From Escherichia phage inny: a stretch of 64,000 bases of DNA. The translations under genes and the position numbers were made by a program. Shown piece by piece: positions 569 through 52,079 of the stretch (its first letter is position 1; each line of letters begins with the position of its first letter). The stretch is taken from sequence record MN850601.1; one strand, 5' to 3'. The notes under the pieces are model-generated. The model was not told where the DNA came from. It did not search any database and saw only the letters and a program-made list of their open reading frames with translations.

Positions 569-628
569 TATATCTCCTTCAAAGAAAAGGAGCCGTTAGG
601 CTCCTTATATTCACACAATACTTAACTA

Positions 629-15790: not shown

Positions 15791-16894
15791 TTAAAGTAGA
15801 CCACGTTTAACAGTTTGAATCATACCATCTTCAAGAGATTGCACTTCTTGAATGTAATCAATACGAGCAGCACGGGCTTCAGTGTTGATTCGGTTAGTTT
15901 CTTCCAACATTTTAACTAAGTTTTCTTGATCACGACGCAATGTTTCAATATCCAATACTTGACGATTAGCAAGTTGTGTAGCTTCAATCTGGTTTTGTGC
16001 AGCCAGATCACTACCCATTGCAATAGCAGCATTAAATTCATTCAGTACGTTGTTCTGTGTATCGGCTGCTTTCTTCTGGCGCAGACTTTCAATATACATA
16101 GAAAAGTTTGCAGAGTAAGCAGGAATAACATTGTTCACAATATTACGGGCTGATCGCATCAAACTTGCAGATACTTTCTGCATACTTTGTACACGTGGCC
16201 CCATCTGAACGCACAGTAAGCGTAAGGCTTTCAGGTCTGCAATACGAATTTCAAGCAGATCCATAGTGTCACGAGTACGTTGACGCTCTTCTACTTCATT
16301 TTCAGGTAGTGTATTAAGGCGAACTTCTTCTTTTTCATAAGTAGCTGTTAGAAGCTCTATATCCCTGTTTAAGCTAAGAGCATATTTTGCAATAGCCTCC
16401 TCTAAACGTTGCAGATATCGTAAAGAATCTTCTTCTTTTTTCAAGTCTGTTTGGAGTGTCTTTACCAAACCCTCAATACGATTATTGATGGTGTCAAATT
16501 CTCCAAACAAATCTTCTTTCATACCTAATACTTTCTTAACTAACTTACCTAAACCTTTAGATTGTTTAATAGAATTAGGATCAAGTTGCTTTGCTTGCTT
16601 AATAAGTGCAGTTAAACGTTCACTCATTTCATCTCCCTGAGATGAACGCTGGTGTTTAAGCACTTCAGCATTAAGGTTACGAAGAGTAAGTCCTGCATCA
16701 GCACCAACTTGTTCAATCTCTTCACGAGACATTGGAGGCAGCATTTGTACAGGTCGTGCAACAGCAGGGGCATATACAGGACTTGCATCCATAGCACTTG
16801 GAGCAAACAAAGACTTACTTTTTTCTGTTGTTGCCGTGAATACACTCATTTCAGACGGTTTGCTTTTTACGGCACTGATAAAAGGACTGGACAT
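15791..16894 (-). CDS. TelA/KlaA-like toxic-anion-resistance family protein
   Basis: 367 aa, coiled-coil rich; KQLDPNS and C-terminal LDIETLRRDQENLVKMLEETNRINTEARAAR resemble TelA family as recalled; sits inside the Ter-like cluster. Confidence 0.6.
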   Translation of the reverse strand: MSSPFISAVKSKPSEMSVFTATTEKSKSLFAPSAMDASPVYAPAVARPVQMLPPMSREEIEQVGADAGLTLRNLNAEVLKHQRSSQGDEMSERLTALIKQAKQLDPNSIKQSKGLGKLVKKVLGMKEDLFGEFDTINNRIEGLVKTLQTDLKKEEDSLRYLQRLEEAIAKYALSLNRDIELLTATYEKEEVRLNTLPENEVEERQRTRDTMDLLEIRIADLKALRLLCVQMGPRVQSMQKVSASLMRSARNIVNNVIPAYSANFSMYIESLRQKKAADTQNNVLNEFNAAIAMGSDLAAQNQIEATQLANRQVLDIETLRRDQENLVKMLEETNRINTEARAARIDYIQEVQSLEDGMIQTVKRGLL

Positions 16895-22795: not shown

Positions 22796-22828
22796 ATAAA
22801 TAAAGGAGGCTTTCGCCTCCTTTTATCA
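22796..22828 (-). terminator. hairpin GGAGGC-N4-GCCTCC with flanking T tracts
   Basis: Perfect 6-bp stem immediately downstream of AAA ATPase gene stop. Confidence 0.45.
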
Positions 22829-22829
22829 C

Positions 22830-23990
22830 TTAGTAAGAACGACCACCAAACACATACTCTGTGTAGTTTTTACGTTCTTTGTTTTTAATAACAACTTCAA
22901 TGTTGTTGCCTTTATCATCGGTGAACACAAAGTGATAACCGTCACCACCCATTGTACGGATGTGTTTTTCATCATACGTCAGCAAGATACGGTCTACACC
23001 CCAGTAGTAGTCACCTTCTTCATCTTTGTCTTCTACTGTAACGACCCCTTCCATTTCAGGAAGATGCTCCTCTCCTAGCTTATGGTCTACAGCTACAACA
23101 TAACGATTACCGCTAAACAAACCCTGTGCTGTCATACCGTCAATATCGGTATCTGCCGAAACATCTCCTGTACGATCTACACCGTTAACTTTCAGGAGTT
23201 TAACTTCTTTTGCAGCATAGCGGTGTTCAGTAATACTGATACCCATTAATGCAAGTGCATCAGAGAATTTGTCATTAGGGTAACGGTTAAGTTCTTCTAC
23301 TAGTGACTGAACAATATCAAAGTTCAAGTCCACGGAAAGATTATAAAGCGTTTCAAAATCTGGTAAAAAGGCTTTGTTCTCCAGATTTTTAGCCAGATAG
23401 TCATCCATAGTAGCTTTAGGTAGTTTCTTATAGCTAAAACTGTAGAAAATACGGCTAGGACGATTACGCAAAAATTCTGATACATAACCATCATTTTTAG
23501 TCAATACAAACAGCTTGTCATAGCCACCTACACCATCCAGCAGAGTAAGCAAACCATCCTGTGCATCTTTTTCAGCATACAGTTTATCAAATTCATCGAT
23601 CATAATCATCACAGGTTGTGTGATTTTAGACATAAAATTGATAAAGCCTTCGCCATTAAAAGCACTACCGATAGAAATAGTAGGAATACCCATTTCACGA
23701 AGAGCAGAAGACAGCATTTTAGCTTGCAAAGTTTTACCACTACCCTTCGTACCCTCAAGGAGAACACCTGTGTTTTTACCTTTGCGGCTAAGGAACGTCT
23801 TGATAATACGTTCTGATTTATCATCAGTATCACCGTATGTTACTGAAGGGACTTCCATATCGTTTTTAGGATACAGGAAGAACTCACCACTTTGAGTAAC
23901 ACCTACACCAAAAGTTCCTGCTGGAATTTCTTCAATATCTGTACCAGATTTCTGACGCAGGAAGATTTGATTGCCGAATACTGTAAACAT
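22830..23990 (-). CDS. AAA+ ATPase (classic AAA clade)
   Basis: 386 aa; Walker A GTKGSGKT, Walker B IMIDEFDK, LLTLLDG, FLRNRPSRIFYSF; paralog of 39536..40663. Confidence 0.75.
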   Translation of the reverse strand: MFTVFGNQIFLRQKSGTDIEEIPAGTFGVGVTQSGEFFLYPKNDMEVPSVTYGDTDDKSERIIKTFLSRKGKNTGVLLEGTKGSGKTLQAKMLSSALREMGIPTISIGSAFNGEGFINFMSKITQPVMIMIDEFDKLYAEKDAQDGLLTLLDGVGGYDKLFVLTKNDGYVSEFLRNRPSRIFYSFSYKKLPKATMDDYLAKNLENKAFLPDFETLYNLSVDLNFDIVQSLVEELNRYPNDKFSDALALMGISITEHRYAAKEVKLLKVNGVDRTGDVSADTDIDGMTAQGLFSGNRYVVAVDHKLGEEHLPEMEGVVTVEDKDEEGDYYWGVDRILLTYDEKHIRTMGGDGYHFVFTDDKGNNIEVVIKNKERKNYTEYVFGGRSY

Positions 23991-24010: not shown

Positions 24011-24481
24011 TTAGTCAGATTCCCAAATGTTGTCTTTCTTAACCCACATTCGTTGATTATCTGAACCTCTATAACGTTTCGTTGTTGGTTGATTCATATC
24101 ATACTTACCATCTATCACTATGTCAACCAGTTTTTTAATTTTCTCTGGAATTTCTTCAAAAAGATATCCTGTATATAAGACAATATCTTTTTTGTTTCCA
24201 AAACAATCTCTTACCTTCTCAAGAACATACTCTACAGTGTCAATGTTCTCTTTGTCAAGAGGTTCACCACCTAAAACTGTTAATCCTTTAATGAAAGGTC
24301 GAGATAAATCTTCCAAGATAAGATCTAATGTTTCAGTAGTGAACTCTTGTCCGTAGTTATACGACCAGGCTTTCTGGTTAAAGCAGCCACGGCAACCGTG
24401 GCTACAACCGCTCACCCACAAAGAGCATCTTACACCATCACCGTTGAGCATGTCAACAGGTTCATATCCGGCGTAATTCAA
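24011..24481 (-). CDS. nrdG: anaerobic ribonucleotide reductase activating protein (radical SAM)
   Basis: 156 aa; LNGDGVRCSLWVSGCSHGCRGCFN (CxxxCxxC cluster); directly downstream of nrdD. Confidence 0.9.
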   Translation of the reverse strand: MNYAGYEPVDMLNGDGVRCSLWVSGCSHGCRGCFNQKAWSYNYGQEFTTETLDLILEDLSRPFIKGLTVLGGEPLDKENIDTVEYVLEKVRDCFGNKKDIVLYTGYLFEEIPEKIKKLVDIVIDGKYDMNQPTTKRYRGSDNQRMWVKKDNIWESD

Positions 24482-26277
24482 AAATGTTTCTCCCTTTCTA
24501 GTACCTCTTGCATTTTACCTTTATTATAAGGGCGAGAGTTAGGGGCAGAAAGGTATCCTGACACTCTTCTGATTACAGATATAGATTCTTCCTCATGATT
24601 GCCACAACTTGGACACTCGAAGCCTTTAGCTGTTGCCTTAAATTCACCATGAAAACCACATTTGAAACACTGATCTACAGGTTGGTTCACGCCAAAATAA
24701 GGAATTTTGTTGTAGGCATAATCTACAAGAGTTTCCAGTGCTTGCAAGTTATTTTTAAGGTTTGGTGTTTCTACATAACCTATGTTCCCACCGTTACTGA
24801 TTTGTGCAAAACCTTCCTCATAATCCCACTTTTGGAACGGGGTAGTGTGCATCCACACAGGTTGATGGAAAGAGTTTGTCAAGTAGTCACGATCAATAGA
24901 ACCAGGATAGCGATCATTTAATGCTTTGGCAAATTTATAGCACAAGGATTCTGCTGGTGTTCCATACAAACTAAAAGCTAAACCAGAACGTTCTTTAAAT
25001 GTGCCACAGATATCCTTCATATATTGAAGGATGTTTTTACCCATTGCTTTTGGATTGGTGTTACCTGGGTATAAAATCTCCATAGCTTCTGCTAAACCTA
25101 CATAACCGATACTAATAGAGGCATAACCACCTTCAAATAGTTTACCAATCTCTTCATTAGCTTCTAGTCGAGCTAAAGCCCCTTCCATAAACAATGTAGG
25201 GTTTTGAGATGCTTTGGTATGTCTAATACGGTTAACACGTAGCATATGTGCCTTATACGCCATCTCCATATGTTGTTCCAACAGTTCAGTAAATAAGATG
25301 CCCTTTTCACGGGACTCTGCTGCAATGATAGGTAAGTTTAAAGAAACTACGCCTAAGTTGAAACGACCATCATATTTTTCACCTTGCTCTGTTGCATAGT
25401 ATGACAAGAAGCTACGGCAACCCATGCTTGTGACGCGACCATCTGAAGATCCTGTAACTTCTTTATTTAAAGGTACAGAGATAAAATCAGGATAAATGCG
25501 TTCAGCACAACACTCCATTGCCAGTTGCTTCAAATCATAGTTTGGATCGCCAGCTTTCATGTTAACACCATCTTCCAAGAAGAAGATAACTTTAGGAAAC
25601 ACAGGAGTTACCCTATCTTTTCCCAATCCTTGTTTGTGCACCATTAGGTAGTTTTTAGTGATCATTCTACCAAAAGCAGAGGTATCCAAACCTAAACTAA
25701 TTGTTATAAAAGGTGACTGACCATTTACACTCATTAGAGTGTTCACCTGGTAGATTAAAGTTTGCATTGCATCATAGACCTGTTTATCTACCATACGCAT
25801 AGCAATATCATAATCGCCAACATCGGCATATATTTTATTAAAACTTGCTTTAACGTATTGACTAAGCCCAGTATCAACATGTGCACAAGTTTGTCCACCA
25901 TATTGGCTAGAAGCTACTGCTTGAATAATTTGAGTTAGGACAGTAGTCGCTACACCGATAGATTTTGGTTTTTCAATATGTGCATTACCAATACGGAAAC
26001 CGTTCTCAAGCATATCTTGGTAATTTACCAGGCAACAATTAGTTAAAGGTGAGAGTAAATAATCTAAATCGTGAATGTGACCATACCCACTTTTATGCCA
26101 TTCTGCCAGATCTTCCGGTAAAATATGGGTCATTGCCATGTGCTTGCTTAGGATACCTGCTAGTAAGTCTCGGTGAGTATTAACAATCATTGCAGGTTTG
26201 TTTGCATTTTCACGAGTAAATTCTTCGGATGTTTGTTCGAGGAATCCGATTACATCCTCATATAGTTTTTGGGTCAT
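24478..26277 (-). CDS. nrdD: anaerobic ribonucleoside-triphosphate reductase
   Basis: Track ORF trimmed to ATG (MTQKLYED...) with GGAGGA SD; C-terminal zinc ribbon CFKCGF...CPSCGN and glycyl-radical region IRRVSGYLSAPNSRPYNKGK. Confidence 0.92.
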   Translation of the reverse strand: MTQKLYEDVIGFLEQTSEEFTRENANKPAMIVNTHRDLLAGILSKHMAMTHILPEDLAEWHKSGYGHIHDLDYLLSPLTNCCLVNYQDMLENGFRIGNAHIEKPKSIGVATTVLTQIIQAVASSQYGGQTCAHVDTGLSQYVKASFNKIYADVGDYDIAMRMVDKQVYDAMQTLIYQVNTLMSVNGQSPFITISLGLDTSAFGRMITKNYLMVHKQGLGKDRVTPVFPKVIFFLEDGVNMKAGDPNYDLKQLAMECCAERIYPDFISVPLNKEVTGSSDGRVTSMGCRSFLSYYATEQGEKYDGRFNLGVVSLNLPIIAAESREKGILFTELLEQHMEMAYKAHMLRVNRIRHTKASQNPTLFMEGALARLEANEEIGKLFEGGYASISIGYVGLAEAMEILYPGNTNPKAMGKNILQYMKDICGTFKERSGLAFSLYGTPAESLCYKFAKALNDRYPGSIDRDYLTNSFHQPVWMHTTPFQKWDYEEGFAQISNGGNIGYVETPNLKNNLQALETLVDYAYNKIPYFGVNQPVDQCFKCGFHGEFKATAKGFECPSCGNHEEESISVIRRVSGYLSAPNSRPYNKGKMQEVLEREKHF

Positions 26278-26290
26278 TAATCCTCCGTGG

Positions 26291-26318
26291 AAAATAAAAG
26301 CCAGCATTAAGCTGGCTT
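26291..26318 (-). promoter_or_regulatory. stem-loop AAGCCAGC-N5-GCTGGCTT + T tract abutting nrdD RBS (terminator/attenuator)
   Basis: 8-bp perfect stem followed on minus strand by TTTTATTTT, about 14 nt upstream of nrdD ATG. Confidence 0.5.
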
Positions 26319-26366
26319 TAGGGTGGATCTTTATTTTAAATCTTTTTCGTAAGATTGTCCTTGATC

Positions 26367-27317
26367 TTAGTCAAGGTTTTTGGTAATACGTGTACAACCA
26401 TCAGAAGTCAAACCGTCAACTTGAGTTTCCCAAGTGCCATGAATATTTCGGAACAATGTTGTTACACCTTTTGGTTCATTAATAATGATTGCCATAACAA
26501 GTTTAGGATCGATAACAGACATAATCTTTTCCTCAATACCCTCTGTAATAACATTATTACGCACAATATTAATTACATCTTCTTGTACAGAAAGGGTACT
26601 TACGTTCTTAAGAGTATATACCTGCTGCGTAGTGTAAATGATACGAACATAACTTACAGAACGAGTAGGCACAGGTTTACGCGGTCGGCGAAAACGTGGT
26701 TTTGGTGAAGATTCAGTCTTACTTTCATTTTTTGAATAATACTCCTCAAACAGTTTAGTAAATGTTTTTACATCAACTACAAACCGATCTTTCCTATATG
26801 GAGAATTCTTATGTGCACCATTAATACCACTGTTTTCATCGAAGAAAGTAATGTTTTCTTCAGTTGAATATGTTAGATAATGGTTTGCATCTTTCCAATG
26901 TGGTTGTGGACAATGCGGATTACAAACGGAAAGCAGATAACTAATATCTTCTTCCGTTGCACTAGTATCCAAGAAACACGTATTATGCACAGTCAGTTCT
27001 ACTTTTGCAACCATATCCATTTCTTTATCCTCATTGGCAAGATATTCAGTACGAATAATCTCCAGAAAACCTTCAGGTGTTACTTCCATAAATGTGTATT
27101 CAGGGTGAAGTTCCATATATTCAAATCCACAACCATCTAATTGCTGTAGGAAGTTAGGATAGAAGAACAAGTCATTAACACTATGAATCAGATCATTGAT
27201 TTCTGCTTCAGATGTGTAACCAAAACTTTTGTGAATTGCTTCATTAAGAATATGCAGGATACCCATCTCTTCTGCTGCTTTTTTAACTTCCAGTTTATTA
27301 GCGTAAAATGCAATCAT
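26367..27317 (-). CDS. hypothetical protein
   Basis: 316 aa ORF. Confidence 0.55.
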   Translation of the reverse strand: MIAFYANKLEVKKAAEEMGILHILNEAIHKSFGYTSEAEINDLIHSVNDLFFYPNFLQQLDGCGFEYMELHPEYTFMEVTPEGFLEIIRTEYLANEDKEMDMVAKVELTVHNTCFLDTSATEEDISYLLSVCNPHCPQPHWKDANHYLTYSTEENITFFDENSGINGAHKNSPYRKDRFVVDVKTFTKLFEEYYSKNESKTESSPKPRFRRPRKPVPTRSVSYVRIIYTTQQVYTLKNVSTLSVQEDVINIVRNNVITEGIEEKIMSVIDPKLVMAIIINEPKGVTTLFRNIHGTWETQVDGLTSDGCTRITKNLD

Positions 27318-27334
27318 TATGTTCTCCTTCTAAA

Positions 27335-27769
27335 TTAGTTTAAAATTTCTTTGGCAATGGTAGAAGCAAGTTTTCCATCATATTGATTAGGATACTCTGC
27401 TTTAAGGTGTTTCATCATATCTGGCATTTTCTTGCCTGTCAAGGCAAATTCTTCAGCAATCGCTCGAAGGTCATCTTCAGATAGCATTTCTGGTAAATAT
27501 TTTTCCAGAGTGGTGATATCACGCATAGCTCGCTCACATTTGCTAATGGAAGCATTAACTTTCTTAAGTGAGTCTAGCTCCTCTTTAGCGTGTGCAATAC
27601 CAATCTTAACAATGTTAATCATAATATCATCTTCTGATTTATTTAGATTTGCCTTTTGAGTACGAGCAAGGTCAAACTCACCAATAATATTAGTTAACAA
27701 AGCAAAAGCACCCTTATCGGTTGTACGTGCTAAGATACGATCTGCTTTCATTTGTGTCACAATAGACAT
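27335..27769 (-). CDS. GatB/YqeY-domain protein
   Basis: 144 aa; KYLPEMLSEDDLRAIAEEF...MKHLKAEYPNQYDGKLASTIAKEIL resembles YqeY family. Confidence 0.65.
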   Translation of the reverse strand: MSIVTQMKADRILARTTDKGAFALLTNIIGEFDLARTQKANLNKSEDDIMINIVKIGIAHAKEELDSLKKVNASISKCERAMRDITTLEKYLPEMLSEDDLRAIAEEFALTGKKMPDMMKHLKAEYPNQYDGKLASTIAKEILN

Positions 27770-43544: not shown

Positions 43545-43640
43545 ATCGCCCTTTCTTTGATGTGCGCCCTGGTTGGCGCGGTAGAAAGATAATAGCCCTT
43601 TCCTTTATAGATAGCAAGCAAAAAAAAGAAATGAAAAAAA
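43545..43640 (-). promoter_or_regulatory. promoter + stem-loop cassette (minus-strand copy)
   Basis: On minus strand: TTGCTT-N17-TATTAT, then hairpin GCGCC-N6-GGCGC, then ACATCAAAGAAAGGG. Confidence 0.4.
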
Positions 43641-43664
43641 GATTAAAAAAGGGGTTGACGTTCC

Positions 43665-43693
43665 TCACCTGGTAGCGTATTATTCATCTTGTC
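43665..43693 (+). promoter_or_regulatory. sigma70-like promoter (TTGACG-N17-TATTAT)
   Basis: Divergent from minus-strand cassette. Confidence 0.4.
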
Positions 43694-43810
43694 GAGGGGG
43701 GCGAGGCACAACGACAATAAACAAAAGGAGGGCGCAATGTAGGACGGGCAAAGGTGAGGATCTCCATAATCCACCGTCACAATAACATTACTTATAAAAG
43801 GTTGATAACG

Positions 43811-43906
43811 ATGATCAAGAAAGAAAACAGCTTGACGGTTGGAACGATTAACGCTATCATTCTTGCCGTTCCATTTTGGATTGTAGTTGCGGTTATTATT
43901 TTTTAA
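43811..43906 (+). CDS. tiny hydrophobic peptide (31 aa), speculative
   Basis: MIKKENSLTVGTINAIILAVPFWIVVAVIIF; weak SD. Confidence 0.25.
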   Translation: MIKKENSLTVGTINAIILAVPFWIVVAVIIF

Positions 43907-43914
43907 AAATATTC

Positions 43915-43970
43915 TTGACAACGTTTTTTAATCTGATAAGATGTATCACATAGGGCGGCAATAGTGCCGC
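43915..43970 (+). promoter_or_regulatory. early promoter + 5' stem-loop cassette
   Basis: TTGACA-N16-TAAGAT, then CATAGG + hairpin GCGGCA-ATAG-TGCCGC. Confidence 0.55.
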
Positions 43971-43994
43971 TCATAACAGAAGAGAGAAATAATC

Positions 43995-44267
43995 ATGGCA
44001 TCATATAGCGCATCAATGATCGTAATGGGCATCACTGGTAAACCTATGCGCGGTGGCGGATCTTTCGCTAACATCAATATTGATGGGCGTTTATCCCTGG
44101 ATGCAGCGATCACCGTGGCACGGGAAACATTTAAAAAAGAATGTAATTTCAATAAACAAGATTATCTCGGTTTCGCTATTGAAAAAACCGCGCGATTTGT
44201 GGATTATAAAAGCCCGAAAATGATCGACACTACACTAAAAGCGCAAGATGTAGCGTTTTTGCTTTAA
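43995..44267 (+). CDS. hypothetical protein
   Basis: 90 aa; follows cassette. Confidence 0.55.
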   Translation: MASYSASMIVMGITGKPMRGGGSFANINIDGRLSLDAAITVARETFKKECNFNKQDYLGFAIEKTARFVDYKSPKMIDTTLKAQDVAFLL

Positions 44268-44269
44268 GT

Positions 44270-44330
44270 CTTGACACTGAAAAATAATTTGGTAATATAT
44301 ACTCCATAAGGCGGGAAATGGTTTCCCGCC
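44270..44330 (+). promoter_or_regulatory. early promoter + 5' stem-loop cassette
   Basis: TTGACA-N16-TAATAT, hairpin GGCGGGAAA-TGG-TTTCCCGCC, then CATCAAAGAAAGGG. Confidence 0.55.
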
Positions 44331-44355
44331 AGGCCATCAAAGAAAGGGTAACACA

Positions 44356-44718
44356 ATGAGCAAGCAAATCAATACTATCATGTTAAACCTGGTATCTTTC
44401 CGCGACGACGTGAAAAATCTTCCACGTGATGCAGTGGATGCACGGATCGAAAGCTATCGCTCACAGATCGCAACGCTACCGCTAAAACGTGATCAACATG
44501 CCGCTAATATGATGCTTAATGCTATGCTTAAAAAGATGATTCAATGTGATCTTACCCTGGCTTATGAATATGCTGGCGATCTCTTTGTAACATATAGCAA
44601 GCCCGTACCAGGTATGAGCACAACGGAAGAATTGCATGCCTTAAATCTGCGACAAGATGCATGGGATAACATGCGCCGTGTTATGGTATGGGTAGAAAGC
44701 GGTAAAATTTACGAATAA
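44356..44718 (+). CDS. hypothetical protein
   Basis: 120 aa; follows cassette. Confidence 0.55.
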   Translation: MSKQINTIMLNLVSFRDDVKNLPRDAVDARIESYRSQIATLPLKRDQHAANMMLNAMLKKMIQCDLTLAYEYAGDLFVTYSKPVPGMSTTEELHALNLRQDAWDNMRRVMVWVESGKIYE

Positions 44719-44724
44719 AAACGG

Positions 44725-44778
44725 TTGACATTGCACTAAAACCTGATAAGCTATCTTAAAGCGGGAATAGTTCCCGCT
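44725..44778 (+). promoter_or_regulatory. early promoter + 5' stem-loop cassette
   Basis: TTGACA-N16-TAAGCT, hairpin GCGGGAA-TAG-TTCCCGC. Confidence 0.5.
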
Positions 44779-44796
44779 TACATAGGATAAAACTTT

Positions 44797-44943
44797 ATGA
44801 AACAATATGTAATGAGTATTCACACCAAAAACGGCGCTACTGTTACGACTCCGGCACGGTTTGCACTTGTAAACCGTTGCAAGAGACTAAAACGAGAGCT
44901 AAAAAACAACCGTGCAACGGGCTTTAAACGCTGGGGAGGATAA
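44797..44943 (+). CDS. small basic protein (about 48 aa)
   Basis: Below track cut-off; MKQYVMSIHTKNGATVTT...KRLKRELKNNRATGFKRWGG; coordinates approximate. Confidence 0.4.
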   Translation: MKQYVMSIHTKNGATVTTPARFALVNRCKRLKRELKNNRATGFKRWGG

Positions 44944-44945
44944 TC

Positions 44946-45206
44946 TTGTTTTTTCTAAAAGTTTTTGATAATGTGATCGCTTTTGAACATGCTACAACGT
45001 TCAACCTGGCGAGATACGCTATCAGGTTTAAAGATAATGTTTATCCCCGTGCTGGCGGCGGTTACACTATTTTTAATCATCGTAATGCGCAACTAACAGA
45101 TATAACGAATCCAGATCCTGGGGTGTATCGCATAGGCTGGCTACCGTCAAAAGACGCGGCAAGCATGTTTAAGGTATGTAAACTACTAACAGAAGAGGCG
45201 AACTAA
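44946..45206 (+). CDS. hypothetical protein (TTG start)
   Basis: 86 aa; GGAGGA 5 nt upstream of TTG, coupled to previous stop. Confidence 0.4.
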   Translation: MFFLKVFDNVIAFEHATTFNLARYAIRFKDNVYPRAGGGYTIFNHRNAQLTDITNPDPGVYRIGWLPSKDAASMFKVCKLLTEEAN

Positions 45207-45207
45207 C

Positions 45208-45762
45208 ATGGGGCGTGAATATGTGATCCAGTCCTGGGTAAAGCATGATGCTAATGATCCGCGCATAATACCAGATGACATGATCGATCACATGGTAGGA
45301 TATAGCGGGGAGCAGATAGGAAATCGAGCGGCAAAGAGCAACGGCAACACAAAGGCGCGATCCGTTCGCCCTGGTTGGCTGGCAAATGGTAACGCTGACA
45401 TTGCAAGCGCCGCAGATCCAAGCGATGACGCTAAAAATAATCCCTTATACAGCATTGATCCGGCTTTTAAGGTGTTAGAAGAGTATCCCGCTAAATTAGC
45501 CGCACTAGATAAGGCATACGAAGAAAAGCGCATGGCATGGACTGTATACAACACCGCTAAAATGGTGCTAGATGCAAAATTGATTAAAGCCCAGGAGAAG
45601 ATCAATAAACTTGTTGCAGTAGCGCAAGAGGAAGACCAGGACGACCAGGAGGAAGAGGAAGAAATCATGCCTACCCTGGAAGAGGAAGAGATCCAGCCAT
45701 ACATGCCGACGGAAGAGGAAAAAAGACAAGCCCTAAAAAATTATGAAAATTGTATTGTGTAA
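45208..45762 (+). CDS. hypothetical protein with strongly acidic C-terminal region
   Basis: 184 aa; QEEDQDDQEEEEEIMPTLEEEEIQPYMPTEEE. Confidence 0.55.
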   Translation: MGREYVIQSWVKHDANDPRIIPDDMIDHMVGYSGEQIGNRAAKSNGNTKARSVRPGWLANGNADIASAADPSDDAKNNPLYSIDPAFKVLEEYPAKLAALDKAYEEKRMAWTVYNTAKMVLDAKLIKAQEKINKLVAVAQEEDQDDQEEEEEIMPTLEEEEIQPYMPTEEEKRQALKNYENCIV

Positions 45763-45765
45763 GGC

Positions 45766-45871
45766 TTGACATATGCAAACAAGCCCCGTAATATGTACCA
45801 CATAAAGCGGGGCAACGCCCCATAAGGTGAAATAAAAAATCACTTGACACCTGAAATCAGTAAGCTATAAT
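45766..45871 (+). promoter_or_regulatory. tandem early promoters, first with stem-loop
   Basis: TTGACA-N17-TAATAT + hairpin GGGGC-AAC-GCCCC; then TTGACA-N16-TATAAT. Confidence 0.5.
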
Positions 45872-45908
45872 GCTTATATAGATTGAAACATTACTAAGGA
45901 ATAAAAGC

Positions 45909-46088
45909 ATGGCTATTATTGCAAATACTGAGATCGTAGGTTTAGATTCTATCATCCTGGCATATGAGGAAGCTATAGAAATGTATGTGGTTTCCTATGG
46001 TGATTATATCCGTGAATATAAATCTATTGATCTAGCTTTTGAATGTTATATTCGCCAGGTCAATAAAGCCTATGATGATTATCGTTAA
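45909..46088 (+). CDS. small hypothetical protein (59 aa)
   Basis: Below track cut-off; AAGGA upstream; MAIIANTEIVGLDSIILAYEEAIEMYV... Confidence 0.4.
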   Translation: MAIIANTEIVGLDSIILAYEEAIEMYVVSYGDYIREYKSIDLAFECYIRQVNKAYDDYR

Positions 46089-46107
46089 AAGTTTTAGTCT
46101 TGTGCTA

Positions 46108-46136
46108 TTGACAACGAACGATAGTACAAGCATAAT
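46108..46136 (+). promoter_or_regulatory. sigma70-like promoter (no stem-loop)
   Basis: TTGACA-N17-CATAAT. Confidence 0.4.
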
Positions 46137-46183
46137 AACTTTTATCGGGAATACTCCTAACTAATCAAAAGAGATTAAAGACT

Positions 46184-46549
46184 ATGGCTAAAAATATCAA
46201 TGTTTCTGCTTATGCTACCCTGGCTAACACTGCTAAAATTGAACTATCCAGCATTGAAGCGGTACATATTAGCGCCCGTCGCTGGTTTCAAAAGTCTTAT
46301 GGTAATACTTATTTCTCTTTGATGGTTGACGTTGAGATCGGCGGTAAACTGATTGAAGTCGTTAACGTTCCGTTTCAATATGGTTATGGTGATCATTTTG
46401 ATACCGTTGCCCTAGAAGAGTTTAGCAAGGTTATCAACCTGGAAGGTAAAGACTTTTCAAATTATGCTTACCTTTCCCGTTTTTGCCGTGACAATGGGAT
46501 CGCTGTATACAGTCATGCAAGCGATGTTAAACGTAAAAAAGATCTATAA
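46184..46549 (+). CDS. hypothetical protein
   Basis: 121 aa ORF. Confidence 0.55.
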   Translation: MAKNINVSAYATLANTAKIELSSIEAVHISARRWFQKSYGNTYFSLMVDVEIGGKLIEVVNVPFQYGYGDHFDTVALEEFSKVINLEGKDFSNYAYLSRFCRDNGIAVYSHASDVKRKKDL

Positions 46550-46555
46550 AAAGCA

Positions 46556-46612
46556 TTGACAACAGAAAGAAAAAGAGTAAACTGTATCACATCAGGACGG
46601 GGAACGGTTTCC
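46556..46612 (+). promoter_or_regulatory. early promoter + 5' stem-loop cassette
   Basis: TTGACA-N16-TAAACT, hairpin GGGGAA-CGGT-TTCCCC, then CTAACAAAGAGAG. Confidence 0.5.
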
Positions 46613-46638
46613 CCCTCCTAACAAAGAGAGAAATAAAA

Positions 46639-46821
46639 ATGGCTAAATGCACTATCTGTAAGAAAGAAATAGTATTAGTTCCAAGCGCCCGTGAACGTGC
46701 CGCTAAGTTCGGTGGCAAACCGTCAGACTATACGAAAATGTTTACTACCCATGCAGCTTGTCAGGTAGCAAAACGTTCACAAGAAAGCGTAGAATTAATG
46801 CGTAAACTTTCCAAAAAATAA
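46639..46821 (+). CDS. hypothetical protein
   Basis: 60 aa; follows cassette. Confidence 0.5.
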   Translation: MAKCTICKKEIVLVPSARERAAKFGGKPSDYTKMFTTHAACQVAKRSQESVELMRKLSKK

Positions 46822-46823
46822 TA

Positions 46824-46883
46824 TTGACAAAGTATTTTATTACTATATAATGGTTTACATCGAGAGCGGGAATAGTTCCCGCC
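46824..46883 (+). promoter_or_regulatory. early promoter + 5' stem-loop cassette
   Basis: TTGACA-N16-TATAAT, hairpin GCGGGAA-TAG-TTCCCGC. Confidence 0.55.
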
Positions 46884-46906
46884 TCACTGAAAAAGAGATT
46901 AACATC

Positions 46907-47146
46907 ATGGCTAAATCAAAAATGTTCTTAGGTCACAAAAATAAAACTCATTGGAATGTAAGCCTTTGGATCAACAACGATGAAGGTTTTTATAATCTTG
47001 CGCGTGAATTTATCGCAGCTAACACCAATAAGAATGACGCAGCGCGGGATATGATGTTATTCCTTGAAAGTATGGATCAAGATAAAACGCCAGACGGTTA
47101 CAAGTTCAGTAAAACTGCAATCCGTGCCGCTATGGTAGGAATGTAA
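46907..47146 (+). CDS. hypothetical protein
   Basis: Track ORF 46850..47146 trimmed to ATG after cassette (MAKSKMFLGH...). Confidence 0.5.
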   Translation: MAKSKMFLGHKNKTHWNVSLWINNDEGFYNLAREFIAANTNKNDAARDMMLFLESMDQDKTPDGYKFSKTAIRAAMVGM

Positions 47147-47155
47147 TAAAATAGC

Positions 47156-47216
47156 TTGACACTGTTTTTTATTCTGGTATAGTTTATCACATAGGGCGGG
47201 AAATGGTTTCCCGCCA
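47156..47216 (+). promoter_or_regulatory. early promoter + 5' stem-loop cassette
   Basis: TTGACA-N17-TATAGT, CATAGG + hairpin GGCGGGAAA-TGG-TTTCCCGCC, AAATCAAAGAAAGG. Confidence 0.55.
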
Positions 47217-47237
47217 AATCAAAGAAAGGTTATTATT

Positions 47238-47465
47238 ATGGCTATCGTTATTGTTCGCGTATCCGGTACGGTTGGAAGCTCCCAAGTAGTAGCAGTTATC
47301 ACCGAGAAGAAAGGGGATGATCTTCACTCTTCCTTGAATAGCTGGGCGGTCGCTAACTTCGGGCAATGGTCGAGCGTTGAGTACATCGAATCCTACCAGG
47401 TGCCAACGATTAGCCTAACAGATCTGAATGTTGATCGCTTGTTGTGCCTGGATGGATTAAACTAA
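47238..47465 (+). CDS. hypothetical protein
   Basis: 75 aa; follows cassette. Confidence 0.5.
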   Translation: MAIVIVRVSGTVGSSQVVAVITEKKGDDLHSSLNSWAVANFGQWSSVEYIESYQVPTISLTDLNVDRLLCLDGLN

Positions 47466-47473
47466 AAATAATC

Positions 47474-47530
47474 TTGACAAGATAACTAAAATCAGTAAAA
47501 TGTAATGCATAGGGCGGCAATAGTGCCGCT
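47474..47530 (+). promoter_or_regulatory. early promoter + 5' stem-loop cassette
   Basis: TTGACA-N16-TAAAAT, CATAGG + hairpin GCGGCA-ATAG-TGCCGC. Confidence 0.55.
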
Positions 47531-47552
47531 CATAGTAAGAGAGATTATCAAA

Positions 47553-47768
47553 ATGGCTAATATCCGCACACTGTTAAAAAATGCAAGTCAAGTTTTATTT
47601 TCAGATGACGAGTATTTCAACAAAGACATTACAGGCGTGAAAAATTTAAAAGACGTGAAGGATGTTATCGGTATCCGTGGATCTTTACGTAAAGGTGACA
47701 TATACGGTAACAAGGTGCAATATAAACTGTCAAAAGATTATGATTTTACTTTGACAATTATTTCATAA
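47553..47768 (+). CDS. hypothetical protein
   Basis: Track ORF 47505..47768 trimmed to ATG after cassette (MANIRTLL...). Confidence 0.5.
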   Translation: MANIRTLLKNASQVLFSDDEYFNKDITGVKNLKDVKDVIGIRGSLRKGDIYGNKVQYKLSKDYDFTLTIIS

Positions 47769-47774
47769 AACCGC

Positions 47775-47836
47775 TTGCAATACTGCAAAAATAAAGTAAA
47801 CTGTATTCATCAAGGCGGTGGAATAGCCCACCGCCT
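47775..47836 (+). promoter_or_regulatory. early promoter + 5' stem-loop cassette
   Basis: TTGCAA-N17-TAAACT, hairpin GGCGGTGG-AATAGC-CCACCGCC. Confidence 0.5.
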
Positions 47837-47859
47837 AACAAAGAGAAGAGGAAAACATC

Positions 47860-48030
47860 ATGATCACTTTCGCTACCCGTGAAGCCGCTCGCAACGTTGC
47901 ACGTAAAGTTAACGCCGCCAACCTGGGCGCTACGCTTAAAGCCCCGGTAAAAGATGAATCAGGTAAATGGATCTTCCCTGGTTTGCGTCACGCTGATAAG
48001 CTGGGAACGTTAACGTTAAAAAATAAATAA
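47860..48030 (+). CDS. small hypothetical protein (about 56 aa)
   Basis: Below track cut-off; MITFATREAARNVARKVNAANLGATLKAPVKDESGKW...; coordinates approximate. Confidence 0.4.
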   Translation: MITFATREAARNVARKVNAANLGATLKAPVKDESGKWIFPGLRHADKLGTLTLKNK

Positions 48031-48037
48031 TATCCGC

Positions 48038-48098
48038 TTGACAGTAGCATGATTTATAAGTAAAGTAACAACAACGGCGGGAAATGGTTTCCCGCCAT
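48038..48098 (+). promoter_or_regulatory. early promoter + 5' stem-loop cassette
   Basis: TTGACA-N17-TAAAGT, hairpin GGCGGGAAA-TGG-TTTCCCGCC. Confidence 0.55.
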
Positions 48099-48116
48099 CA
48101 ATAAAGAGATAAGATT

Positions 48117-48476
48117 ATGAAATCAGCAAAAGCAATTAAAACTTATATTGTGTCGGCTATTTCTTTTGAAGGTACTACAACCGAAAAAGAAAAGATCACC
48201 GAACTGATGCGCCGTTTTAACTCTGAATACTGGTATCCCGATAATCAAAAACGTTACAATTATAACGTGATCAAGGCGATAGCCTCATGGTTACAAGGTT
48301 TACCGTCAGAAATCAATATTGCTTTTGATTATAACGAGATCGATCACTTATTAATTGAATGGAAGTACATAAAAGAAACAAGCAAAGAAACAACCGTTAC
48401 CCGTGAGCGGGAAAATTATTGGTTATATATTGCAAGCATGATCGTAATCCTGGCAAAACAGCATAACGTGGCGTAA
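48117..48476 (+). CDS. hypothetical protein
   Basis: 119 aa; follows cassette. Confidence 0.55.
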   Translation: MKSAKAIKTYIVSAISFEGTTTEKEKITELMRRFNSEYWYPDNQKRYNYNVIKAIASWLQGLPSEINIAFDYNEIDHLLIEWKYIKETSKETTVTRERENYWLYIASMIVILAKQHNVA

Positions 48477-48490
48477 TTAAGAGGAAAAAC

Positions 48491-48628
48491 ATGAACGCAT
48501 CACAGCAGATCGAAAAATTCAACCGCAGCAAGGCGCGTAAAGATTGGAACGAAGAGATCACCAAAAAAGGCGACAAGCGGAACAAAACAAAGAGAGATCG
48601 CAGCACAAAAAGATACTGGAACGAATAA
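48491..48628 (+). CDS. small basic protein (about 45 aa)
   Basis: Below track cut-off; AAGAGGAAAAAC upstream; MNASQQIEKFNRSKARKDWNEEITKKGDKRNKTKRDR... Confidence 0.35.
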   Translation: MNASQQIEKFNRSKARKDWNEEITKKGDKRNKTKRDRSTKRYWNE

Positions 48629-48633
48629 CAAAA

Positions 48634-48656
48634 AAGGGCGCTTATTGCGCCCTTTT
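48634..48656 (+). terminator. rho-independent terminator
   Basis: AAGGGCGC-TTAT-TGCGCCCTTTT. Confidence 0.6.
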
Positions 48657-48746
48657 AGCTTATATAGAGGCTTGTTACCCATAGGCAATGGTAACGCCAG
48701 GATAAGCCTATAAACCACGTTAGACAGCTTTACAGGAGCTTTAAAA

Positions 48747-48929
48747 ATGAAATTAGAAGAAATAAGCAAGGCACTAGCCCAGGGGCAAAGGTTAAACGCC
48801 CGTTATCGTGATCAATATGGCTTCATAACCAGCGGCGTGATCCTGGGGATTGAAGGCAATAAGATTTTTATTGACACGTTGAAAAACGTTGTATATAGTG
48901 ACAATATAATCTCAATAAAACATATATGA
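48747..48929 (+). CDS. hypothetical protein
   Basis: 60 aa; AGGAG SD. Confidence 0.45.
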   Translation: MKLEEISKALAQGQRLNARYRDQYGFITSGVILGIEGNKIFIDTLKNVVYSDNIISIKHI

Positions 48930-48937
48930 GGCAAGAA

Positions 48938-49339
48938 ATGAAAAAATTATTGATCGCTGGTTTAATCTCTTTTGGCATGGTTGGAACATCTAGCGCGGCG
49001 ATATCCTCCACAGTAGCAGAATTAAGCGCCGTTGATGCAATGGAAAACGTGATGCTTATTAATAATGCGATCCCCGATGAAATCATGGAGGATTCACACA
49101 TGATCGCTTATGGTGCTGTTACACAACTAACGGCAAAAATAGATAAATCTATTGTTAATGGCTTAAATGAAGATGTACCATGTGAAATTATTACCAGTGT
49201 GCTCACTACTCAAAATTTTACGCCGTGGTTAAAAAGTATTCAAAAAGTACACAGTACAGCCGCAGATCGTAGCAATGAAAAACTAGTGTCAGCACTTGCA
49301 ACGTATACCCTGGCAAAATGCACCGAGATAAAAGATTGA
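48938..49339 (+). CDS. secreted hypothetical protein
   Basis: Track ORF trimmed to ATG (MKKLLIAGLISFGMVGTSSAA...), signal-peptide-like. Confidence 0.55.
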   Translation: MKKLLIAGLISFGMVGTSSAAISSTVAELSAVDAMENVMLINNAIPDEIMEDSHMIAYGAVTQLTAKIDKSIVNGLNEDVPCEIITSVLTTQNFTPWLKSIQKVHSTAADRSNEKLVSALATYTLAKCTEIKD

Positions 49340-49364
49340 CAACATAGAAAGCACGTTATAAGAT
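49336..49364 (+). promoter_or_regulatory. sigma70-like promoter (no stem-loop)
   Basis: TTGACA-N17-TAAGAT. Confidence 0.4.
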
Positions 49365-49386
49365 ACACACAACAAAGGAGAACTAC

Positions 49387-49689
49387 ATGAACGGCATAGC
49401 TAAAACGTTTTTTCTTTTTTCTGGTGTAAATGATCCATCAATAAAAGTCGATAGTGTAAAAGAAAACAATACTATCACCGCTAAATTGTTTCAAGATGAA
49501 ACAAATAACGTGCTAATCATTAATCTTAAAGAAATAACGAAAGGTTATTGTACTATTGCTTACCATGCAATCTATCATGCTGGTACTAGTGAGGAAGTGC
49601 AAACAAGCAACAACGAAAGCGCGGCGCTACCTGGTGATCTGGTGCTGGGCGTTATCAGTTTAATTGTCAATGATTTTTTTAAGGAGTAA
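49387..49689 (+). CDS. hypothetical protein
   Basis: 100 aa; AAAGGAG SD. Confidence 0.55.
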   Translation: MNGIAKTFFLFSGVNDPSIKVDSVKENNTITAKLFQDETNNVLIINLKEITKGYCTIAYHAIYHAGTSEEVQTSNNESAALPGDLVLGVISLIVNDFFKE

Positions 49690-49693
49690 AACC

Positions 49694-49789
49694 ATGCCCT
49701 ATTTACATTTATTTTTCGGGATCTTATTGTCAGGATCTTTTTTCTTCTGTATACTTGTTTCTATTGTAAACCACGTTTTAAGACATTAA
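49694..49789 (+). CDS. tiny hydrophobic peptide (31 aa), speculative
   Basis: AAGGAG SD; MPYLHLFFGILLSGSFFFCILVSIVNHVLRH. Confidence 0.25.
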   Translation: MPYLHLFFGILLSGSFFFCILVSIVNHVLRH

Positions 49790-49798
49790 GGAAACAAC

Positions 49799-49918
49799 AT
49801 GAAAATTATTCCCGTACAGTATAGCGTAATAAATCCAGCATATGAGGAAGGAAGGAAAACAAGCATGGTTTTATGTTATATTGCTACTATAGCCATGTTG
49901 TTATATATTGTGTTTTAA
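49799..49918 (+). CDS. tiny membrane peptide (39 aa), speculative
   Basis: MKIIPVQYSVINPAYEEGRKTSMVLCYIATIAMLLYIVF. Confidence 0.25.
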   Translation: MKIIPVQYSVINPAYEEGRKTSMVLCYIATIAMLLYIVF

Positions 49919-49947
49919 TAGGTTTTATAGTTGTACGCTTTAAAGGC

Positions 49948-49975
49948 TTGACAATTTTTTGTTATGCTTTAAAAT
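49948..49975 (+). promoter_or_regulatory. sigma70-like promoter (no stem-loop)
   Basis: TTGACA-N16-TAAAAT. Confidence 0.4.
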
Positions 49976-50018
49976 ATATCTTGAAAACGGCAAAGGCCGC
50001 AAACAAAAGGGTAAAATT

Positions 50019-50342
50019 ATGAAATCTGTGATAGGTGTTTATTTGGATAACTCTGATTTTTTCTATCATCGCGCGCGTTTACTTGATGCTATTGAAATGA
50101 TAGAATCAGGCTTTAAAGAGTATCGCCTTGCACATGATGACCTGGAAGCATTACAGGGCAATAGTGTTTTTACATTGCAAGCGAAAGCACTATGCAAAAG
50201 CCGGATCGAGATTGCGAGCAAAAAGATAGAACGCGGCATGTCCTGGTTGCGCACCGCAGAAATCAACATGGGGCAATGGTACGGCGAAAACTTAGAAAAT
50301 AAACATACTTTTGTCAATGTAGAAAATATTGAAGATTATTGA
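50019..50342 (+). CDS. hypothetical protein
   Basis: Track ORF 49959..50342 trimmed to ATG (MKSVIGVY...). Confidence 0.5.
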   Translation: MKSVIGVYLDNSDFFYHRARLLDAIEMIESGFKEYRLAHDDLEALQGNSVFTLQAKALCKSRIEIASKKIERGMSWLRTAEINMGQWYGENLENKHTFVNVENIEDY

Positions 50343-50343
50343 T

Positions 50344-50406
50344 TGACAGCACACCGAACGGGTAGTATATTGTATCTCATAGAGCGGGGAAATGGTTTCC
50401 CCGCCT
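50344..50406 (+). promoter_or_regulatory. early promoter + 5' stem-loop cassette
   Basis: TTGACA-N17-TATATT, CATAGAG + hairpin GCGGGGAAA-TGG-TTTCCCCGC. Confidence 0.55.
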
Positions 50407-50424
50407 TAAAAGAAGAGATAAGCT

Positions 50425-50709
50425 ATGAAGATCACAAAAGCACTTTCCAACTATGCAGCACGTCGCGGCTTATGTTTAACCGTTGAAAACTTAGGGAAAG
50501 AAGATTTTTTGTGCTTTTGGGAGCTTGAGAATGATAATGAGTGGATCTTCTCTTATTCTATCTGCGAAGATCAAAACGGTTGTTTATTAACCTGGCGCGG
50601 TAATATCTATCTACCGGAAGAAATCAAAGAAGAATTACCAGGCACGATCATGACTGAGAAACAGCTTAAGGAAGTGATTAATTTTGTAGGGCAAAACATT
50701 AAAAAATAA
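50425..50709 (+). CDS. hypothetical protein
   Basis: 94 aa; follows cassette. Confidence 0.55.
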   Translation: MKITKALSNYAARRGLCLTVENLGKEDFLCFWELENDNEWIFSYSICEDQNGCLLTWRGNIYLPEEIKEELPGTIMTEKQLKEVINFVGQNIKK

Positions 50710-50710
50710 T

Positions 50711-50771
50711 TTGACACTAGGCAAACAACGTAGTAAAGTTTATCACATAGGGCGGCAATAGTGCCGCTCAT
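50711..50771 (+). promoter_or_regulatory. early promoter + 5' stem-loop cassette
   Basis: TTGACA-N17-TAAAGT, CATAGG + hairpin GCGGCA-ATAG-TGCCGC (near-identical to 43915 and 47474 copies). Confidence 0.55.
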
Positions 50772-50790
50772 AACAGAAGAGAAACAAATC

Positions 50791-50961
50791 ATGATCCCGA
50801 CTATGTTTTATGTATCGCGCAAAGGTCACAATATTTTTTGGTCTGAAGATTTAAATGAAGCCATGACGTTTGCCCGTGATCGTGTAGCTATCGGTGGCGT
50901 TAACATCACCGTAACCGATGAAAACGGCATTGAATACTATAACGGCGACGATGAAGAGTAA
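50791..50961 (+). CDS. hypothetical protein
   Basis: Track ORF 50761..50961 trimmed to ATG after cassette (MIPTMFYVSRKGHN...). Confidence 0.45.
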   Translation: MIPTMFYVSRKGHNIFWSEDLNEAMTFARDRVAIGGVNITVTDENGIEYYNGDDEE

Positions 50962-50965
50962 TTAA

Positions 50966-50992
50966 TGAGGCGGGGGAGTATTCCCCGCCGTC
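50966..50992 (+). promoter_or_regulatory. 5' stem-loop without obvious own promoter
   Basis: GGCGGGG-N-CCCCGCC hairpin then GTCAATAAAGAGG before ATG of 51009. Confidence 0.4.
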
Positions 50993-51008
50993 AATAAAGA
51001 GGTAAATC

Positions 51009-51278: not shown

Positions 51279-51280
51279 TT

Positions 51281-51340
51281 TGACAATACGCGGTTATCTG
51301 GTAAAGTGTACGACATAGGGCGGGGCAATAAGGCAACGCC
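51281..51340 (+). promoter_or_regulatory. early promoter + 5' stem-loop cassette
   Basis: TTGACA-N16-TAAAGT, CATAGG + GC-rich hairpin (GGGCGGGGCAATAAGGCAACGCCC). Confidence 0.5.
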
Positions 51341-51360
51341 CATTAATGAGGGTAGAATCA

Positions 51361-51465: not shown

Positions 51466-51474
51466 GTGAATCAA

Positions 51475-52073: not shown

Positions 52074-52079
52074 AAAGTA

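Follow-up and report, generated by a model that had tools for sequence, protein, structure and literature searches.

The anaerobic ribonucleotide reductase gene nrdD of Escherichia phage inny (sequence record MN850601.1) is preceded by a stem-loop and a run of U residues that very probably act as a functional intrinsic (Rho-independent) terminator. In the 64,000-nucleotide (nt) stretch of this genome analysed here, referred to below as the window, the element would be a canonical terminator for the host RNA polymerase (RNAP), built into a conserved control module of ~110 nt before nrdD. On the minus strand the proposed module runs from an FNR box (26374..26361) through a 22-nt spacer, a -10 hexamer (26338..26333) and a transcription start at ~26326 to the hairpin (26319..26297), the U-tract, the Shine-Dalgarno (SD) sequence and the nrdD ATG at 26277. 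Its sequence makes it likely that an FNR-dependent promoter lies upstream of the hairpin, and we lean, with some reserve, towards the whole picture in which the hairpin is a constitutive terminator or attenuator and the FNR promoter is the oxygen switch. The promoter-like module just upstream of the hairpin was missed by the first-pass annotation of this region, which had described the hairpin and suggested that it gates the expression of nrdD and the adjoining nrdG (nrdDG). The hairpin itself is ordinary and already annotated in related genomes; the link to FNR is a modestly novel and well-supported prediction.

The hairpin and U-tract before nrdD

Read on the minus strand, the hairpin consists of a 5' arm AAAGCCAGC (26319..26311), the loop TTAAT (26310..26306) and a 3' arm GCTGGCTTT (26305..26297), so read that the RNA runs UAAAAUAAAGAUCCACCCU-AAAGCCAGC-UUAAU-GCUGGCUUU-UAUUUUCCAC-GGAGG-AUUA-AUG. 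Terminators were defined as a G+C-rich stem of ~5-14 bp with a loop of 3-8 nt and a U-rich tract of 7-9 nt directly 3'. Here six of the nine base pairs are G-C or C-G, and eight of the nine nt after the G+C core are U. Folded alone, the hairpin reaches -14.6 kcal/mol (z = -4.9), and none of 200 shuffled sequences folded as well. The strong stem-loop and T tract noted by the first-pass annotation are thus indeed present, on the minus strand. In a consensus scan of 22-32 kb the hairpin was the best terminator-like site on the coding strand, and a stricter scan (a hairpin plus at least six U in nine) found six sites with a free energy of -14 or lower in the 64-kb window against none in 40 Markov shuffles. 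The hairpin lies on the transcribed strand, 48 nt past the stop of a co-directional gene, a homologue of phi92 gp194. Read on the plus strand, the stem has no T-tract after it but TTTAGGGTGG, and therefore the signal works only in the direction of the genes.

The U-tract ends at 26291 and is followed by CCAC, the SD (26286..26282) and the ATG (26277..26275), which leaves 13 nt between its last U and the ATG, in good agreement with the 'about 14 nt' given previously. The hairpin and the T tract had both been read correctly from the sequence, but two or three T's had been counted twice, because the stem is closed by T's that also begin the tract (GCTGGC-TTTTATTTT-CC in the DNA). As also noted at that stage, no promoter fits between the hairpin and the SD; therefore any polymerase that transcribes nrdDG must read through the hairpin. 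A start downstream of the hairpin, with TATTTT as its -10, was rejected, as it would remove the SD. Pairing of the A-tract AAAAUAAA with the U-tract was likewise rejected, being set off from the stem by a 12-nt bulge and absent from the minimum free energy (MFE) structure of the window; in Klebsiella phage FBKp34 this pairing has one A-U to G-C change, as read from the sequences. No Rfam family reached its gathering score in the window. The best sub-threshold match within 26150-26500 was STnc430 (22.4 bits, gathering score 47), and the sub-threshold matches were all small RNAs (sRNAs) or leaders that bear a terminator.

Three GenBank records, namely those of Paula, vB_Eco_PATM and FBKp34, the last of which has a diverged version, label the homologous site a 'terminator', and 54 of 54 Justusliebigvirus records carry the module at 96.7-100% identity. 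Across seven aligned Justusliebigvirus haplotypes the stem, the U-tract and the SD are invariant and almost all variation falls in the 5-nt loop, which reads TTAAT, ATTAA, TTAGA or TTAGT. The window shares the TTAAT loop with 25 other records, to which it is identical over a 119-nt region, and the ATTAA loop occurs in phi92, Paula and UAB_1, with ~23 records in the same 97.5% identity class as phi92 and Paula. TTAAT and ATTAA are exact reverse complements, the other 114 nt being almost invariant; therefore what separates the two main haplotypes is a loop inverted between perfect inverted arms, which looks like the result of a template switch or of hairpin-mediated inversion. In FBKp34 the hairpin is AAGCCAGU-UAAC-GCUGGCUU (-10.9 kcal/mol), where the top C-G pair has become U-G with pairing kept, and the U-tract (CUUCUUAUUUU) is conserved. 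Only two true modules, both identical to the window, came out of a metagenome scan anchored on the flanks. A hairpin-anchored scan of IMG/VR (AAGCCAG..CTGGCTT..TTATTTT) found nothing but generic, unrelated terminators; its gap range left out the 7-nt spacing of the window itself.

The loop also contains an in-frame ATG (26305-26307), 30 nt 5' of the true nrdD start, and hence the open reading frame (ORF) listing gave nrdD 609 aa; in the record of phage SD2, nrdD is annotated from this codon. It is probably a mis-called start, because the ATTAA-loop haplotype does without it. The downstream start is identical in the annotation of Paula, phi92 and PATM. A leader peptide was rejected as well, as the leader has a single ATG (26307, in the loop), which the ATTAA-loop haplotype does not keep.

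The hairpin is not special to nrdD. The minus strand carries every gene from ~37,955 down to 1, and our scan found only three strong coding-strand terminators in this 38-kb cluster (606..587, 22823..22802 and 26319..26297). Each is followed after 7-10 nt by a strong SD, with 7-8 nt at 606..587 and 22823..22802; an ATG is visible beyond it at two of the three, since the printed stretch at 606..587 ends before any start codon. The terminator at 22823..22802 is annotated as such in Paula and PATM, and with the hairpin it brackets the nrdD-nrdG-ATPase block. The same terminator-then-SD layout is also found in unrelated IMG/VR phages. Because the other two cluster terminators likewise abut the SD of the next gene, the hairpin is no special gate for nrdD. 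The earlier proposal of a leaky terminator, with nrdDG expressed by read-through, therefore holds in that a strong terminator-type hairpin is present, but not as a device specific to nrdD. The further suggestion that the hairpin gates the anaerobic ribonucleotide reductase (RNR) gives way to the predicted FNR promoter upstream as the likelier gate: oxygen gating, if it exists, is most likely the work of host FNR acting at that promoter rather than of the hairpin.

The shared layout might instead serve timing. The terminators at 26319, 22823 and 606 would then stop unmodified host polymerase early in infection, and an antitermination or RNAP-modifying factor would read through them later. Phage lambda has N and Q for such a purpose. 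A further precedent for a phage factor of this kind is gp39 of phage P23-45 (PMC3351154). Such factors are thus known in other phages, and it would suit them that the terminators directly abut downstream genes that need expression. However, no candidate factor and no nut- or put-like element was seen, with no search aimed at either, and internal sigma70 promoters (24126..24098 and 27442..27414) already give the downstream genes transcription of their own. We consider a temporal gate very unlikely.

A predicted FNR promoter and its counterparts in other phages

At class II FNR-activated promoters the box is centred ~41.5 bp upstream of the start, i.e. with 21-23 bp between box and -10, and the -35 is weak. 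In E. coli a box of the FNR consensus stands there in 19 of 23 FNR-activated promoters (PMC3688515). The putative box and -10 in the window match this geometry, as the predicted start (26324..26326) puts the centre of the box at -41.5 to -43.5, the former for the seventh nt after the -10 (26326). The arrangement resembles the class II promoters of dmsA, narG, nirB and ydfZ (box at -41.5) in its TTGAT-N4-ATCAA-type box 22 nt before the -10 and its poor -35, and differs from these E. coli promoters in being the predicted promoter of a virulent phage. The gp194 stop codon TAA (26369..26367) falls in the spacer of the box. Host nrdDG is FNR-activated according to PMC2892513 (citing Roca 2008). An anaerobic RNR under FNR would thus be common to the host and, as predicted, the phage. 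No NrdR-box-like palindrome was evident by eye in the phage module.

Composites of a box with at most one mismatch, 20-23 nt and a -10 matching at least five of six positions occur twice in the window, one of them here, where the null gives 0.45 per 64 kb with both strands counted. The other (15819-15861, minus strand; TTGATTACATTCAA, 23 nt, TATGAT) is within chance expectation; it is located in the 3'-terminal part of a 'tellurite resistance'-like gene and precedes by ~40 nt a 68-aa ORF of unknown function. A separate FNR-like box with one mismatch (24089-24102) overlaps the -10 TATGAT (24103..24098) of a strong promoter inside nrdG. Repression would be expected from this position, though the box could be due to chance.

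The phage relies on sigma70-type promoters, which we count in favour of the FNR promoter: the window holds 17 sigma70-type sites that match at least 11 of 12 positions, most of them on the coding strand, against 3.2 expected. The site inside the yqeY-like gene (27442..27414) is the likely source of transcripts that reach the hairpin, and the same hexamer pair recurs at 24126..24098 inside nrdG, preceding the ATPase gene. Between 27414 and the nrdD ATG there is no sigma70 match of at least 10/12. The only candidate in that interval is AGGACA-17-TAAAAT (9/12; 26361..26333), upstream of the hairpin. The rV5 'late-like' motif TggTAaAAtA was considered as a phage-specific promoter and rejected, as the window has TTTAAAATA without the TG; TGNTAAAAT is weakly enriched (13 vs 7.7) and TAAAATA is not enriched.

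It is the comparison with other phages that carries most weight for the predicted FNR module. FBKp34 has cTGAT-TTAA-ATCAA, exactly 22 nt and TAAAAT kept, with a diverged spacer; its upstream gene is yqeY, not gp194, and its nrdD has an ATP-cone, which the window nrdD lacks. In ECGD1, TAGAAT stands in place of TAAAAT. Phapecoctavirus has TTGAT-CCTG-AaCAA, 21 nt and TGgTAAAAT, in an intergenic region that on reading shows no evident similarity to the window's. The jumbo GAP32/PBECO4/CBB-like phages have a perfect TTGATCTAGATCAA, 23 nt and then TATTAT or TGaTATAAT, and in L108 a box identical to the window's is followed after 22 nt by TGgTATAAT. In T5-like phages a box and a consensus promoter are ~70 bp apart. 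Among the collected loci, T4-like phages have no FNR box upstream of nrdD. In the Vequintavirinae (rV5, PVP-SE1 and phiTE types) neither the hairpin nor the FNR composite precedes nrdD, which there includes an ATP-cone and is tightly joined to grx or phoH.

Eighty phage nrdD loci were collected from IMG/VR, and the 200 nt upstream of nrdD were scanned in them for boxes with at most one mismatch. Seventeen boxes (nine of them perfect) were found there, at 1.05e-3 per nt versus 1.4e-4 elsewhere in the loci, a ~7-fold enrichment upstream of phage nrdD. The upstream boxes lie at -72 to -99 from the nrdD ATG, in Stephanstirmvirinae, the jumbo and T5-like phages and others, and 7 of 28 nrdD sequence clusters have one (binomial P ~6e-6). 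Our literature search found no paper on FNR control of phage nrdD, nor on FNR-box enrichment there.

These data bear directly on the plainest alternative, the first of the two put forward in the first-pass annotation, in which the hairpin is an operon-internal leaky terminator. Upstream transcripts that read through would then be the sole source of nrdDG expression, the hairpin would do no more than set its dose lower than that of gp194, and the FNR box and TAAAAT would be coincidental or non-functional in infection. The terminator features are strong enough for this, the same terminator-then-SD layout stands at two other junctions that have no promoter-like module, no sigma70 site of at least 10/12 lies between 27414 and nrdD, and FNR boxes by themselves occur in the window at chance frequency. 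What a plain terminator does not explain is that the box/-10 composite, at 21-23 nt spacing, recurs before nrdD in at least four lineages, in some of them within visibly dissimilar intergenic DNA; that FNR boxes are enriched upstream of phage nrdD; and that the module stays with nrdD though the upstream gene differs between FBKp34 and the window. We therefore regard it as unlikely, if the strongest of the competing explanations.

Several points nevertheless weigh against the favoured picture. FNR boxes alone are not enriched in the window (8 vs 6.6 expected). The left half-site of the box lies inside coding sequence, and for this reason its conservation within the genus is not independent evidence. 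The seventh nt after the -10 is a C, a non-purine. The stem has no double compensatory change, because only two diverged versions of the module exist and could be compared. In the literature we found no transcriptome of a Justusliebigvirus or any member of the Stephanstirmvirinae, and no FNR-binding, start-site or 3'-end data. Finally, a terminator that follows the start of its own promoter would offer no selective insulation, as upstream and FNR-started transcripts would both be attenuated, and the predicted order in the window is the least easily rationalised, two other lineages having the terminator before the start. In both of these, Phapecoctavirus and the GAP32/PBECO4/CBB-like jumbo phages, an FNR box stands at class II distance from the -10 with a terminator hairpin no more than 60 nt from the box, as in the window. 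However, in Phapecoctavirus the order is terminator, FNR box, -10, and in the jumbo phages (five loci) the hairpin lies inside the promoter spacer and its U-tract overlaps the -10. With the terminator ahead of the start, it can selectively shield an FNR-dependent nrdD against transcription from upstream. Unlike in these phages, the hairpin comes after the predicted start in the window and in FBKp34.

How the module may work

In the picture we favour, polymerases arriving from gp194, having started at the sigma70 promoter 27442..27414 and at others upstream, would mostly halt at the hairpin. This stop would provide the gp194 mRNA with a protected 3' end and hold aerobic read-through into nrdDG at a low level. 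Under anoxia, host FNR would activate the class II promoter just upstream of the hairpin. Relative to its predicted start the hairpin spans ~+8..+30 (~+8..+36 with the U-tract), and because it lies within the FNR-started transcripts these would be attenuated as well. Only the fraction that reads through would become nrdDG mRNA, which would begin with a stable 5'-proximal stem-loop.

Intrinsic terminators within co-directional clusters are well known, for example the partial terminator between rplL and rpoB of E. coli and T-phi between T7 genes 10 and 11. The hairpin in the window shares with these, and with the annotated sites of Paula, PATM and FBKp34, a G+C-rich stem, a short loop, a 9-nt U-rich tract and a downstream gene that needs read-through. 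It differs in having a promoter-like module just upstream, with the terminator predicted to fall in the first 36 nt of one transcript and at the end of another. That a terminator this near a start can work is clear from the E. coli greA leader, where an intrinsic terminator constitutively stops about two-thirds of transcripts at +40-60 and the rest become mRNA (PMC2836576). There too the terminator stands within tens of nt of the start (here a predicted one) and just before the gene, but greA has an 11-bp stem, an end at +40-60 and sigma70 and sigmaE promoters, whereas the window has a 9-bp stem, a predicted end at ~+34-36 and an FNR-type promoter. Read-through of phage terminators is documented as varying widely (PMC10204088).

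A bolder version, which we think doubtful, would make the terminator transparent to its own promoter: polymerases that started 8 nt before the hairpin under FNR control would reach the U-tract at ~+35, where many may retain sigma70 and may not yet have NusA bound, and hence would read through, while mature complexes from gp194 would terminate. If true, one hairpin would insulate nrdDG from aerobic upstream transcription yet pass the anaerobic promoter, and more broadly, virulent phages of several families would have wired the oxygen-sensitive class III RNR to host FNR.

A promoter and terminator so close together could also have a small RNA as their main product, of ~35 nt (5'-CCACCCUAAAGCCAGC...UUUU), in which CCACC would be a single-stranded 'anti-SD' seed and the hairpin and U-tail would be of the Hfq type, leaving nrdDG as a by-product of read-through. 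The geometry fits, the greA leader yields such short RNAs (GraL), and the sub-threshold Rfam matches are enterobacterial sRNAs. Those matches, however, are due to the generic terminator, FBKp34 has another sequence at the putative seed (CUACUUUU) and no target is known, so we give this idea very little credence.

The first-pass annotation had offered, as an alternative to termination, a 5' structural element controlling translation. In such a scheme GAUCCACC would pair with the SD region (GGAGGAUU) across the base of the hairpin in long read-through transcripts and block nrdD translation, from which transcripts with other 5' ends would escape. The early/late hairpins of T4 e, soc, 49 and I-TevI are translational operators of a resembling kind. 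Indeed, the MFE and centroid structures of 66-nt and 126-nt RNAs hold this outer helix (RNAfold; -19.8 in total vs -14.6 for the hairpin alone), and the predicted start falls inside its 5' arm. Yet the helix, of 7 bp, is interrupted by an A-A mismatch and an internal loop of 2x10 nt; it adds only ~-5 kcal/mol and is absent from both the MFE and the centroid structure of FBKp34, where the arm reads GAUCUACU. At all 5' ends tested between 26450 and 26320, the SD was computed to be unpaired with a probability of 0.21-0.38, because pairing with downstream sequence is open to it as an alternative. An operator would also leave the U-tract without a role. Translational control is thus not borne out, and an operator of this kind is highly improbable. 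A regulated attenuator with alternative terminator and antiterminator folds was rejected, as the terminator stem was retained in every fold, whether of a long or a short RNA.

Genome setting and biological meaning

The features of the region are collected in Table 1. Over positions 24400-27400 the window shares 99.6% identity with Escherichia phage ALITA and 97-99% with ~54 further phi92-like myoviruses (Justusliebigvirus, Stephanstirmvirinae), and by sequence the source of the window is a phi92-like coliphage of the genus Justusliebigvirus. The order on the minus strand is helicase, a small ORF, two tRNA-synthetase-like ORFs, the gp194 homologue, an 89-nt intergenic region with the hairpin, nrdD, nrdG, an AAA ATPase gene and the second terminator.

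Table 1. Features around the nrdD control module, with positions in the window
Feature	Position	Strand	Remarks
YqeY-like gene	27769..27335	minus	second of the two tRNA-synthetase-like ORFs
Sigma70-type promoter TTGACA-17-TATGAT	27414..27442	minus	within the yqeY-like gene and 97 nt upstream of the gp194 ATG; 11/12
gp194 homologue (phi92), 316 aa	26367..27317	minus	upstream gene, whose transcripts would stop at the hairpin; no Pfam domain
Predicted FNR box TTGAC-TAAG-ATCAA	26361..26374	minus	palindrome; 9/10 vs consensus TTGATnnnnATCAA (TTGAT-N4-ATCAA)
Weak -35-like AGGACA	26361..26356	minus	4/6
-10 hexamer TAAAAT	26333..26338	minus	5/6; 22 nt past the FNR box
Candidate anti-SD GAUCCACC	26322..26329	minus	partly complementary to the SD region GGAGGAUU; judged non-functional
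Predicted transcription start	26324..26326	minus	7th-9th nt after the -10; from spacing
Terminator hairpin, 9-bp stem AAAGCCAGC/GCUGGCUUU, 5-nt loop UUAAU	26297..26319	minus	free energy -14.6, z -4.9
U-tract UUUUAUUUU	26291..26299	minus	right after the G+C core; first three U also close the stem
nrdD Shine-Dalgarno GGAGG	26282..26286	minus	annotated ribosome-binding site in phi92
nrdD, 599 aa, without ATP-cone	24478..26277	minus	ATG at 26277..26275; Pfam NRDD (3.3e-166) and Gly_radical
nrdG, activating radical-SAM protein	24011..24481	minus	Pfam Fer4_12 and Radical_SAM; 4-nt overlap with the nrdD stop
AAA ATPase gene	23990..22830	minus	
Next strong terminator AAAGGAGGC-GAAA-GCCUCCUUU	22802..22823	minus	closes the nrdD-nrdG-ATPase block; SD 8 nt later, then ATG

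The gp194 homologue is called 'ribonucleotide reductase' by PHROG 15930, and hence in many records. This name looks unsupported, because the protein has no Pfam domain and no similarity to the long NrdD of FBKp34, which owes its length of 1005 aa to an ATP-cone and to an intein-like insertion (~300 aa, residues 178 to 476). Given the same lack of similarity, we rejected gp194 as a split-off N-terminal part of a long NrdD. In Phapecoctavirus a 499-aa gene occupies the gp194 position; its C-terminus looks similar on reading of the translations. The nrdD gene is uninterrupted in the window; that of phi92 holds a group I intron (Rfam RF00028, 70.6 bits), and several relatives have insertions of 280-770 bp.

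A point of divergent switching falls at ~37,960. On the plus strand, the interval 43,600-53,000 has dense near-consensus sigma70 promoters and is typical of an early region, with a perfect TTGACA-16-TATAAT at 45844 and at 46824, each ~50 nt before a small ORF. Within it, 48632-48656 is the site of a palindromic hairpin with nine perfect base pairs and a T-tract on either strand (AAAAGGGCGC-TTATT-GCGCCCTTTT), a candidate terminator for both directions.

To conclude, a virulent coliphage appears to put its oxygen-labile ribonucleotide reductase under the oxygen sensor of its host, and the predicted arrangement recurs in at least four phage lineages. A lytic phage would here employ a transcription factor of its host to adjust an auxiliary metabolic gene to the physiological state of the cell, which may be relevant to phage replication in the anoxic gut. 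The module would also offer a natural test bed for the behaviour of an intrinsic terminator 8-36 nt from a start site.

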